Origin: a phage
Reading direction: 5' to 3' (one strand)
Sequence record: PZ154895.1
Length of the DNA stretch: 64,000 nucleotides
Shown one piece after another: positions 41,152 through 55,332 of this stretch (positions are counted from its first letter, which is position 1; every line of letters starts with the position of its first letter). The position numbers and the translations under genes are program-made. The notes beneath the pieces were generated by a model. The model was given only the letters and a program-made list of their open reading frames with translations. It made no database searches and was not told the origin of the DNA.

Positions 41152-41337
41152 ATGAAACGTTGTGAATTAATTCGAAATGTTGCTATTGCAATTTCTGCTT
41201 CTGCATTTAGCTTTTCAATGTTTGTTGGATTTATATGTGGATTATTAACTACAGCAGAAAATGTGTTTTCACTTGTAGTAGCATTTTTAATTGGTTTAAT
41301 TGCTATCGTTATGGATAAAATTTCTAAAGGTGAATAA
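41152..41337 (+). CDS. small membrane protein (2 predicted TM helices)
   Basis: 61 aa, two long hydrophobic segments; GAGGAG SD. Confidence 0.45.
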   Translation: MKRCELIRNVAIAISASAFSFSMFVGFICGLLTTAENVFSLVVAFLIGLIAIVMDKISKGE

Positions 41338-52491: not shown

Positions 52492-52525
52492 CTGTTTACT
52501 TTTCCTCTTGACTGTGGTATAATTT
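52488..52525 (+). promoter_or_regulatory. T4-type early promoter upstream of regB
   Basis: -35 GTTTAC 52494-52499, -10 TGGTATAAT. Confidence 0.7.
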
Positions 52526-52550: not shown

Positions 52551-53012
52551 ATGACTATCAACACAGAAGTTTTTATCCGTCGAAATAAGCTCCGTCGTCA
52601 CTTTGAGTCGGAGTTTCGTCAAATTAACAATGAGATTCGTGAGGCATCAAAAGCAGCAGGGGTCTCATCGTTTCATCTAAAATATTCTCAGCATCTTCTT
52701 GATCGTGCAATTCAACGGGAGATTGATGAGACATATGTTTTTGAATTATTCCATAAAATAAAAGACCATGTTTTAGAAGTTAATGAATTCCTGAGTATGC
52801 CTCCGCGTCCTGACATTGACGAGGATTTTATTGATGGGGTTGAATATCGTCCTGGGCGTTTAGAAATCACAGATGGAAATCTTTGGCTTGGATTTACAGT
52901 TTGTAAACCTAATGCGAAGTTCAAAGACCCGTCGCTTCAATGCAGGATGGCAATTATTAACAGTCGTCGTTTACCAGGAAAGGCTTCTAAAGCAGTAATT
53001 AAAACTCAATGA
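52551..53012 (+). CDS. regB: RegB site-specific endoribonuclease
   Basis: 153 aa, exactly the T4 RegB size, own early promoter, position between denV and tk. Confidence 0.65.
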   Translation: MTINTEVFIRRNKLRRHFESEFRQINNEIREASKAAGVSSFHLKYSQHLLDRAIQREIDETYVFELFHKIKDHVLEVNEFLSMPPRPDIDEDFIDGVEYRPGRLEITDGNLWLGFTVCKPNAKFKDPSLQCRMAIINSRRLPGKASKAVIKTQ

Positions 53013-53019
53013 GGTAAGC

Positions 53020-53565
53020 ATGAGAAAAGCACTACTCGCTGGTCTATTGGCCATTTCAATGATGGCGCATAGCTCCGAGCATACTTTCAGTAATGTCCAA
53101 CTCGATAACATGCGTTACGCGTATCAATTCGGGGAACAATTTTCTAAGGATGGAAAATATAAAACACACAAAAATATCCACAAGAGCGGATTAGGTCATA
53201 TAATGGCTGCTATTTTATGGCAAGAAAGCTCTGCCGGAGTTAATTTAAAATCTAAACCAAAGCATCATGCCTACGGAATGTTCCAAAATTATTTGCCAAC
53301 TATGCGAGCAAGAGTTAAGGAACTTGGTTATAATATGACTGATGCTGAAATAAAAAGAATGTTGAATAAACGGTCCAATTCAGCTTCCTGGGCGTACATT
53401 GAACTTTCTTATTGGTTAAATATACATAAGGGTGATATAAGAAAAGCTATATCCTCTTATAACTCGGGATGGAATGTTAAAGCTGGTTCTAAATATGCTT
53501 CTGAAGTCCTAGAAAAGGCTAACTACCTTAAAAATAATAAACTTTTGGAAATAGTAAATGACTAA
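53020..53565 (+). CDS. secreted protein with signal peptide, lytic-transglycosylase-like
   Basis: 181 aa; N-terminal signal peptide MRKALLAGLLAISMMAHS; AILWQESSAG resembles a lytic transglycosylase catalytic-Glu motif. Confidence 0.5.
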   Translation: MRKALLAGLLAISMMAHSSEHTFSNVQLDNMRYAYQFGEQFSKDGKYKTHKNIHKSGLGHIMAAILWQESSAGVNLKSKPKHHAYGMFQNYLPTMRARVKELGYNMTDAEIKRMLNKRSNSASWAYIELSYWLNIHKGDIRKAISSYNSGWNVKAGSKYASEVLEKANYLKNNKLLEIVND

Positions 53566-53899
53566 AATTTTGGTTTTATGTATAGGATTAATTTCATTTT
53601 CTGCGTTAGCAAATACATCATATACTGAAATTAGAGAGTATGTAAACCGTACTGCCGCGGATTATTGCGGGAAAAATAAAGCATGCCAAGCTGAATTTGC
53701 GCAGAAATTAATATATGCATATAAAGACGGAGAAAGAGATAAATCAAGCAGATACAAGAACGATACTTTATTAAAACGATATGCTAAAAAGTGGAATACC
53801 TTAGAATGTTCAGTTGCGGAGGAGAAAGATAAAGCCGCCTGTCATTCAATGGTTGACCGTTTGGTAGATTCTTATAATCGAGGATTGAGTACTAGATGA
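53558..53899 (+). CDS. small secreted Cys-containing protein (signal peptide)
   Basis: 113 aa; signal peptide MTKILVLCIGLISFSALA; four Cys. Confidence 0.45.
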   Translation: MTKILVLCIGLISFSALANTSYTEIREYVNRTAADYCGKNKACQAEFAQKLIYAYKDGERDKSSRYKNDTLLKRYAKKWNTLECSVAEEKDKAACHSMVDRLVDSYNRGLSTR

Positions 53900-54375
53900 T
53901 TGTAAAATATATCAAGGGCGATATTGTCGCCCTATTTCTTCAAGGTAATATTATTGCGCACGGGTGCAACTGTTTTCATACTATGGGTTTAGGTGTAGCG
54001 GGTCAATTAGCAAGAGCCTATCCTAAAATTTTAGAAATAGATAAAACCACTACTGAGTACGGTTCTCGTGATAAATTAGGTGATATGTCTATTGTTTTTA
54101 AACATAATCCTGCAGGATTTGGTATATGCTATAACCTGTATACGCAATACGAACCGGGTCCTAATCTTGATTATGGTGCTTTAGTAAACTGCATGATAGA
54201 ATTAAATCTACAGGCAGAAACCCTTTTGTTTAAACCAGTAATTTACATTCCACGCATAGGTTGTGGTATTGCTGGCGGTGATTGGGATAAGGTTTCTAAA
54301 TTAATCGACATGTTTACTCCTGATATTGATTTAATAGTGGTGGATTATGAAAGTACATTACCCGCATCCGTTTGA
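53896..54375 (+). CDS. macro-domain-like protein (ADP-ribose binding/processing)
   Basis: 159 aa; GDIVALFLQGNIIAHGCNCFHTMGLGVAGQLA resembles the macro-domain N-terminal and Gly-rich loop motifs. Confidence 0.5.
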   Translation: MIVKYIKGDIVALFLQGNIIAHGCNCFHTMGLGVAGQLARAYPKILEIDKTTTEYGSRDKLGDMSIVFKHNPAGFGICYNLYTQYEPGPNLDYGALVNCMIELNLQAETLLFKPVIYIPRIGCGIAGGDWDKVSKLIDMFTPDIDLIVVDYESTLPASV

Positions 54376-54559
54376 TCCTAAAAATAAAGCGGAAATTATT
54401 CGACACTGGACCGAAACACGAGTAACTAAATGCCCTATAAAAAGTCAACACAATACCGATAAATGGTATATCGGCGAATATGTTGAATATACTTTTATAG
54501 ATAAAAATAAACGTAAACAGCATGTAGAAGAATATTGTTTAAAGGTGCAATGGTTATGA
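54347..54559 (+). CDS. hypothetical small protein
   Basis: 70-aa ORF overlapping neighbours; weak. Confidence 0.3.
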   Translation: MKVHYPHPFDPKNKAEIIRHWTETRVTKCPIKSQHNTDKWYIGEYVEYTFIDKNKRKQHVEEYCLKVQWL

Positions 54560-54741
54560 GTCTAAGCATTAGTCAGAAAAGTAGATTATTTGAGCTTATT
54601 CATGAGCTTTTGGATGAGCATACAGAAGCAAACACCTTTTATGATGAATACGGCCCGCTATCTCCCGAACAGCAGGAAGAATTTGCTGATCGGTTTGATA
54701 AGAAAGAAAATGAATTAATAGCTTATGTGAATACGCTTTAA
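54535..54741 (+). CDS. hypothetical small acidic protein
   Basis: 68-aa ORF directly upstream of tk. Confidence 0.35.
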   Translation: MFKGAMVMSLSISQKSRLFELIHELLDEHTEANTFYDEYGPLSPEQQEEFADRFDKKENELIAYVNTL

Positions 54742-54750
54742 GAAGGTGAT

Positions 54751-55332
54751 ATGGCGAGTTTAATTTTTACTTATGCAGCAATGAATGCTGGAAAATCTGC
54801 TTCTCTTTTGACTGCTGCACATAATTATAAAGAACGTGGAATGAGTGTATTAGTTCTTAAGCCTGCTATTGATACTCGCGATTCTGTCTGTGAAGTCGTT
54901 TCTCGCATTGGAATTAAGCAGGAAGCGAATATTATTACGGATGATATGGATATTTTTGAGTTCTATAAATGGGCTGAAGCACAAAAAGATATTCATTGTG
55001 TATTTGTAGATGAAGCCCAGTTTTTAAAAACTGAACAGGTGCATCAATTAAGCCGAATTGTTGATACATATAATGTTCCTGTTATGGCTTATGGACTAAG
55101 GACTGATTTCGCTGGAAAATTATTTGAAGGTTCTAAAGAACTTTTGGCGATTGCAGATAAACTTATTGAACTAAAAGCAGTTTGTCATTGTGGTAAAAAA
55201 GCTATTATGACAGCTCGATTAATGGAAGATGGAACACCAGTTAAAGAGGGTAATCAAATCTGTATTGGTGATGAAATTTATGTTTCTTTGTGTAGAAAAC
55301 ATTGGAATGAATTAACTAAAAAGCTCGGTTAG
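54751..55332 (+). CDS. tk: thymidine kinase
   Basis: 193 aa; P-loop AMNAGKSAS and C-terminal zinc-ribbon Cys pairs; size as T4 Tk. Confidence 0.9.
   Translation: MASLIFTYAAMNAGKSASLLTAAHNYKERGMSVLVLKPAIDTRDSVCEVVSRIGIKQEANIITDDMDIFEFYKWAEAQKDIHCVFVDEAQFLKTEQVHQLSRIVDTYNVPVMAYGLRTDFAGKLFEGSKELLAIADKLIELKAVCHCGKKAIMTARLMEDGTPVKEGNQICIGDEIYVSLCRKHWNELTKKLG

Follow-up and report, generated by a model that had tools for sequence, protein, structure and literature searches.

Predicted export of the early T4-type proteins Vs.1 and Vs, and its poor fit with the valyl-tRNA synthetase modifier label

Can a phage protein that has been labelled for 50 years as a modifier of the cytoplasmic host valyl-tRNA synthetase (ValRS) be one that carries the features of an exported protein? 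The question is raised by two consecutive genes, vs.1 (53020..53565, plus strand) and vs (53558..53899, plus strand), in a stretch of 64,000 nucleotides (nt) from phage sequence record PZ154895.1 (the window), which nucleotide matches to annotated phage records identify as a segment of a Tequatrovirus (T4-like) genome. A preliminary description made from the letters alone had reported two consecutive signal-peptide open reading frames (ORFs) of 181 and 113 amino acids (aa) directly after regB, and their coordinates and lengths are as described. The two were treated there as unnamed ORFs, however, and they are in fact the known T4 genes vs.1 and vs; the annotated function of Vs as a modifier of host ValRS, which conflicts with its predicted export, was thereby missed. 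The explanation favored here, to which a probability of about 0.6 is assigned, is that vs.1 and vs form an exported early module acting on the host murein, with Vs.1 as a putative lytic transglycosylase (LT)-like enzyme and Vs as its accessory partner.

The identity of both genes is clear from their relatives. The region 52551-54375 is matched over at least 80% of its length by 586 phage records, the best at 99.2% identity, and the gene order in annotated relatives is regB, vs.1, vs, tk.4, with 98-99% DNA identity to those Tequatrovirus genomes. The first ORF, encoding a 20.7-kDa precursor, is the orthologue of T4 Vs.1 (UniProt P13311, Y06E_BPT4, 'uncharacterized 20.7 kDa protein in vs-regB intergenic region'): it has the same 181 aa, shares 99-100% identity with T4-group proteins, occupies the same slot between regB and vs, and differs from the T4 protein in nothing substantial beyond one motif substitution (WQESSAG here, WQESSGG in T4). 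The second ORF, encoding a 12.9-kDa precursor annotated as 'valyl-tRNA synthetase modifier' (phrog_1256, E=6.5e-40), is the full-length orthologue of T4 Vs (UniProt P13310, VS_BPT4, 'valyl-tRNA ligase modifier') at 96.5% identity. It lies in the same position and overlaps vs.1 in the same way as its T4 counterpart, whereas a 2-residue deletion in the c-region of its signal peptide (SALA here, SASASA in T4) shortens it from 115 to 113 aa; the indel falls at 53600-53611 of the window (SALA↓N) and at 1543-1560 of the T4 locus (L002; SASASA↓D), and the predicted mature Vs is 95 aa in both. No NCBIfam model was found for either protein. Annotation errors are spreading among the homologues of both: those of Vs.1 are called 'RegB' or 'endoribonuclease' in phiEa104, the note for Kuttervirus heyday, and UniRef names, and Vs is frequently named 'valyl-tRNA synthetase' in public records, as though it were the enzyme itself. 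The cluster formed around the 181-aa Vs.1 at 90% identity, moreover, has some odd members, namely Vs sequences of 113 aa and entries attributed to Bacillus cereus and to Enterococcus faecalis, which are probably clustering or contamination artefacts.

As the preliminary description had proposed, both precursors begin with predicted Sec signal peptides, which were recognized by a heuristic scan and by conservation among homologues. In Vs.1, the predicted signal peptide spans residues 1-18 (MRKALLAGLLAISMMAHS; 53020..53073, plus strand), the N-terminus being composed of MRK, ALLAGLLAISMMA, and the predicted cleavage site AHS↓SE; in Vs, it likewise spans residues 1-18 (MTKILVLCIGLISFSALA; 53558..53611, plus strand) and is composed of MTK, ILVLCIGLISFS, and the predicted site ALA↓NT. 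In both, a positive n-region is followed by a hydrophobic core of 12-13 uncharged residues, and the cleavage motif is of the small-x-small type. A crude in-house filter, which asked for high hydropathy, a positive n-region, 12 or more uncharged residues, and a small-x-small site and was applied to the ORFs of at least 60 aa in the window, passed 5 of 132, including Vs.1, Vs, and rI. The two further ORFs passing this signal-peptide or membrane-anchor filter start at 41152 (plus strand, 61 aa) and 62545 (plus strand, 135 aa), with N-termini beginning MKRCELIRNVAIAISASAFSF and MKQLIIKRLNLLICCLCVVVAYG, respectively.

Conservation is stronger evidence for the signal peptides than this filter. The design of the Vs.1 signal peptide is kept, with drifting residues, in 32 homologues whose identity falls to about 41% (alignment A3), as well as in 12 phages in which Vs.1 and Vs are paired; that of Vs is kept in 17 diverse homologues down to about 25% identity, again with drifting residues, and in 38 full-length copies from IMG/VR. 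In five Vs homologues that form one clade (the SonariX group; L016:1201-1527 and L049-L052), whose N-terminus reads MKKLFVLL(I/V)V(F/V)ALSGC(K), the A-x-A site is replaced by the lipobox LSGC, a swap that would be expected only for an extracytoplasmic protein and therefore argues for export of Vs. A lipoprotein reading was rejected for the Vs of the window itself, whose VLC at residues 6-8 places Leu at -1 and is unfit for a lipobox, and a downstream start skipping the signal peptide was rejected because M98 is the first in-frame Met after the start. The confidence of the AlphaFold models is low precisely at the N-terminal segments (predicted local distance difference test score, pLDDT, of about 57 in Vs.1 and below 50 in Vs). 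The neo-N-terminal peptides predicted for the processed proteins are SEHTFSNVQLDNMR (Vs.1) and DTSYTEIR (T4 Vs), and, in published work, full-length T4 Vs with an N-terminal His tag was insoluble when produced in the cytoplasm of E. coli. Taken as a whole, these features make an extracytoplasmic location of Vs likely. The earlier remark that periplasm-directed phage proteins other than lysis proteins are uncommon holds only in a relative sense. T4 also exports Spackle, Imm, and RI. The suggestion made there that such proteins could modulate the cell wall or superinfection is speculative for both Vs.1 and Vs.

What Vs.1 might do outside the cytoplasm is indicated by the rest of its sequence. 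The predicted mature protein (163 aa, 18.8 kDa, isoelectric point of about 9.7) is matched by the Pfam SLT family PF01464 at residues 61-154 with 23.4 bits, a narrow margin above the gathering score of 21.3 (E=4.8e-5), and several Vs.1 homologues bear a precomputed match to the same family. The LT-like E-S motif that had been noticed earlier in AILWQESSAG (residues 64-73) is borne out by the family alignment: E69 is invariant and S70 nearly invariant across the 32 homologues, and the codons for this putative catalytic Glu-Ser of LT motif I (WQESSAG) lie at 53224..53229 (plus strand). Also invariant among these homologues are G86-M-F88-Q89 (G-x-x-Q), Y147-N148-x-G150 (preceded by Ser), and Y159, which correspond to motifs II-IV of family-1 LTs (G-L-M-Q, A-Y-N-x-G, and a Tyr farther downstream). 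An hhalign comparison places E69-S70 on E505-S506 of the E. coli Slt70 precursor, a weak alignment (E=0.2, with a single Slt70 sequence) that was used for register only; E505 of the precursor is the catalytic E478 in mature numbering.

A structural model of Vs.1 points in the same direction. The AlphaFold2 model built from the 32-sequence alignment (pLDDT 88.8) has the lysozyme-like alpha-helical fold of the SLT/GH23 family, and its best Foldseek matches are all lytic transglycosylases (MltD, Slt, LtgA, and Cj0843). Thus, the Pfam match above threshold, the model, and its structural neighbors uphold the LT- or lysozyme-type fold that had been suspected. A search of PDB sequences with the Vs.1 family profile returned only a sub-threshold match to g-type lysozyme. 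The likeness of vs.1 to SLT is not new, having been published in 2003/2006: Nolan et al. (2006) reported the match for each of the six vs.1 orthologues that they examined and credited Miller et al. (2003) with the same observation. Identity to family-1 LTs (Slt70, MltC, MltE, MltF, and MltD; GH23) and to goose-type lysozyme is only 13-20%, and Vs.1 differs from those LTs in being a single small domain with neither lipid anchor nor LysM domain nor superhelical domain, as well as in being phage-encoded and expressed early. The GH23 family also includes true hydrolases, and, as far as sequence tells, the chemistry of Vs.1 may be that of a lytic transglycosylase or of a hydrolase. With either chemistry, Vs.1 is very probably an exported GH23 enzyme.

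The Vs family, by comparison, is small and phage-only. Two Vs queries recovered 796 and 365 phage records by tblastn, versus 2085 with Vs.1; a HMMER search with the Vs profile against 1.84 billion representatives gave 8 matches, among which there were neither bacterial relatives nor functional hints, and a search of PDB sequences with the family profile gave noise only. The AlphaFold2 model of Vs is a bundle of four helices of moderate confidence (pLDDT 74.8) for which no informative structural neighbors were found. The only invariant positions family-wide are C37, C43, C84, C95, G58, and a C-terminal G-L. The preliminary description had called this protein Cys-rich, which overstates the case: of its 113 aa, 5 are Cys, and one of these belongs to the signal peptide; the four Cys of the mature part are, in turn, family-invariant. 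In the model, C37/C43 and C84/C95 bracket the turns between H1 and H2 and between H3 and H4, respectively, suggesting that the two pairs may act as disulfide staples.

The two genes are also consistently linked. In the window, the vs.1 stop and the vs start overlap by 8 nt (AATGACTAA; 53558..53565, plus strand), suggesting translational coupling. The distance from the vs.1 stop to the vs start lies between -8 and +7 nt in all 12 phage genomes compared, which represent at least nine genera, and the linkage persists in Acinetobacter phages AC4 and Acj9, which have neither regB nor tk.4, and in Muldoon, which has no tk.4. Loci in IMG/VR were searched with two Vs subfamilies, the 17-sequence alignment being too divergent as a whole; a Vs.1 homologue lies directly upstream on the same strand in all 40 loci encoding a Vs relative and abuts it in 38, and in two of the 40 the vs gene is truncated. 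Since these genomes are related and syntenic, neither count represents independent events. A third signal-peptide protein is encoded directly after vs in Klebsiella phage Mineola (L010:2363-2755, 130 aa) and Acinetobacter phage AC4 (L007:2321-2746, 141 aa), placing three predicted exported proteins in a row; these two proteins are 29% identical to each other (E=7e-12), and the window and T4 have no counterpart.

Published T4 data show when both genes are expressed and under which conditions they matter. In a T4 omics paper, the vs.1 and vs RNAs were classed as early and both proteins were detected by mass spectrometry in T4 infection, with the Vs.1 protein appearing in the middle class (T4 infection proteomics dataset, PMC9697503). 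In the HIDEN-SEQ T4 transposon reference library, vs.1 and vs were both called non-essential. The accompanying fitness table (HIDEN-SEQ Data S8, supplementary file 7) lists mean reads per TA site in lysogeny broth (LB) and in M9-glucose. For vs, these fell from 26.6 in LB to 5.0 in M9-glucose (log2 fold change -2.19; p and adjusted p both 0), and for vs.1 from 22.6 to 11.9 (-0.87; p 0.0055, adjusted p 0.155). The values for tk.4 (289.6 and 275.0; -0.07; p 0.86, adjusted p 1.0) and vs.3 (652.1 and 626.2; -0.06; p 0.91, adjusted p 1.0) barely changed, and those for regB rose from 178.6 to 403.0 (+1.17; p 0.049, adjusted p 0.80), so that regB insertions were enriched from LB to M9 in the direction opposite to that of the downstream vs.1 and vs. 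Other flanking non-essential genes had about 130-770 reads per TA site in LB, and vs.1 and vs had roughly 10-fold fewer than most of their neighbors. In this 2025 study, vs stood out as the T4 gene with the strongest conditional importance in minimal medium, and its deletion mutant plaques poorly on M9-glucose, which its authors explain via ValRS. The shared depletion of vs.1 and vs fits either a common function or a polar effect of vs.1 insertions on the coupled vs.

The explanation proposed here is that vs.1 and vs are T4-type early genes that would share an early promoter with regB and would be translationally coupled. Both products would act outside the cytoplasm, each being synthesized as a precursor from which a Sec signal peptide is cleaved. 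Mature Vs.1, a basic protein of about 18.8 kDa, would be a single-domain GH23/family-1 LT-like enzyme in which E69 serves as the general acid cleaving MurNAc-GlcNAc (N-acetylmuramic acid-N-acetylglucosamine) bonds of the host sacculus, and mature Vs would consist of two helical hairpins, each stapled by one disulfide made in the periplasm. Most likely, this conserved two-gene module remodels or loosens the host murein from early infection, and it would raise phage fitness, above all where host cells grow slowly on minimal medium; Vs would serve Vs.1 as an accessory partner and not as its antidote. That Vs.1 and Vs act together on murein is, as a separate claim, possible at somewhat less than even odds.

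Several points weigh against this explanation. For both proteins, export, cleavage, and muralytic activity are predictions. The Aeromonas T4-like phage AS4, Kuttervirus heyday, and Felixounavirus tootiki have Vs.1 but no Vs, so that Vs.1 function does not depend on Vs, and the broad synteny of T4-like genomes makes adjacency alone weak evidence for a shared function. Polarity on the coupled vs may account for the small numbers of reads from vs.1 insertions, and the four Cys of Vs could, in principle, bind metal in a cytoplasmic protein. Above all, work by Neidhardt, Marchin, and co-workers from 1966 to 1980 reportedly connected a locus 'vs' with a peptide, about 10 kDa in size, that was bound to the cytoplasmic ValRS, with effects in valS(ts) hosts in vivo, and every database equates this locus with an ORF of the 53558-53899 type.

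The most serious alternative is accordingly the textbook one, in which Vs is this peptide, the tau factor, and binds and modifies host ValRS in the cytoplasm; its N-terminus would then be inefficient or unused for export, or the protein would be dual-localized, its Cys residues would bind metal or stay reduced, and its adjacency to vs.1 would be only synteny, which is strong among T4-like genomes. ValRS modifier is the name given to the vs ORF by every source, and the minimal-medium defect of vs mutants is readable as a phenotype of translation or amino-acid supply. The 11.0 kDa of the predicted mature Vs is also near the approximately 10 kDa that Marchin (1972) and Mueller and Marchin (1977) reportedly gave for tau. 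The sequence features point elsewhere, since an export signal together with conserved Cys pairs fits poorly with such a label: tau would have to be cytoplasmic, whereas Vs is predicted to be exported by a family-wide signal peptide, a lipobox clade, and two invariant Cys pairs. Retention of the signal peptide in the 17 diverse homologues and the 38 full-length IMG/VR copies argues against a cytoplasmic factor, as does the lipoprotein signal swap in one clade, which makes sense only if the protein is exported. Furthermore, the two Cys pairs are the only invariant side chains of Vs, a cytoplasm-compatible alternative start is absent (the next Met being M98), and the linkage to a predicted exported enzyme survives the loss of the other neighbors. 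The assignment of locus to ORF was also considered. A literature search, outside which the original mapping papers lie, found no record tying the genetic locus vs or the tau peptide to this ORF; later papers on vs cite only the 1970s biochemistry, and the map interval in question also contains several further ORFs of 60-92 aa. The textbook reading is, on balance, rather unlikely. Also to be held only tentatively is the opposite reading in its sharpest form, in which Vs would be a periplasmic, disulfide-stapled partner of the early LT Vs.1 and not a tRNA-synthetase factor, the murein module would explain the minimal-medium defect, and either another part of the e-rI interval would encode tau or the ValRS association would be secondary.

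An alternative that accepts the export of both proteins is that Vs is a periplasmic inhibitor or immunity protein which restrains Vs.1 until lysis, as Spackle does with the gp5 lysozyme or as immunity proteins do in type VI secretion systems (T6SS), so that loss of vs would free Vs.1. Spackle, encoded by T4 gene 61.3, is an early periplasmic protein that inhibits the gp5 tail lysozyme; it is small and helical, bears a signal peptide, and is disulfide-bonded. Vs resembles it in being a small, early, helical, predicted exported protein with conserved Cys pairs; the tight coupling of the two genes with vs downstream, and a vs knockout that is deleterious, more so in slow growth, are likewise what such a model would lead one to expect. 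Spackle, however, acts as an inhibitor of a muralytic enzyme, whereas Vs is likened to it by features alone (sp lies outside the window), and Vs showed no sequence or structure similarity to a known periplasmic inhibitor of lysozymes or LTs, the class to which Spackle, Ivy, PliG, and T6SS immunity proteins belong. The depletion of vs.1 insertions lowers the weight of a simple antidote model: they are under-represented about as strongly as those in vs, when they should be neutral or beneficial, a comparison that polarity may confound. Many phages, moreover, have Vs.1 without Vs. A restraining role of Vs is therefore improbable.

The remaining alternative, that Vs.1 is a second, exported endolysin of the lysis system, has in its favor a muralytic fold with a signal peptide, a Felixounavirus homologue annotated as 'putative lysin', and a likeness to signal-peptide or signal-anchor-release endolysins as a predicted Sec-exported muralytic enzyme, but it is very improbable, given that vs.1, unlike the genes of those endolysins, is early and not late (a gene behind regB with early RNA and a middle-class protein), lies outside any lysis cassette with regB, vs, and tk.4 as neighbors and no holin or spanin next to it, and is dispensable for plaque formation, having been called non-essential while the T4 lysis genes e, t, and pseT.2/pseT.3 take few or no insertions.

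Both genes are catalogued T4 genes, and the LT similarity of vs.1 has been public for two decades, so that the finding matters little as such. The residue of interest is a problem of consistency in a model phage: a 50-year-old ValRS-modifier label is attached to an ORF with an export signal and two Cys pairs, and the mismatch is increased by the fact that, in the genomes examined, this ORF is always found beside the gene of a predicted exported murein enzyme. If Vs is periplasmic, the ValRS explanation given in 2025 for the minimal-medium phenotype would need to be revisited, T4 would have an unstudied early cell-wall module, and the label would have to be corrected in hundreds of phage genome records.

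The surrounding genes and candidate signals suggest that vs.1 and vs belong to a larger early transcription unit. Immediately upstream, regB (52551..53012, plus strand) encodes a site-specific endoribonuclease (Pfam REGB_T4, E=1.4e-68; phrog_1323) and bears the same name in related phages. It is preceded by a promoter-like site found in a consensus scan, TTTACT-17 nt-TATAAT with TG before the -10 element (extended -10; 52495..52523, plus strand), which is probably the early promoter driving regB-vs.1-vs-tk.4; no terminator-like site was seen between this site and vs in a scan of the sequence. Just past the vs stop, within the first codons of tk.4, there is a terminator-like hairpin, AGGGCGATATTGTCGCCCT (53915-53933; 8 pairs followed by a T-rich stretch). 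Farther downstream, tk.1, a 189-nt ORF between tk.2 and tk in T4 and UFV-AREG1, is absent, tk.2 ending at 54741 and tk starting at 54751 (54535-54751 of the window). The gene tk.4 itself (53896..54375, plus strand), which overlaps the vs stop by 4 nt, encodes a macro-domain protein (Pfam Macro, E=2.8e-7); its T4 counterpart is AdfM, an anti-DarTG2 factor (HIDEN-SEQ preprint), and it is still labelled 'phosphatase' or hypothetical in many phage records.

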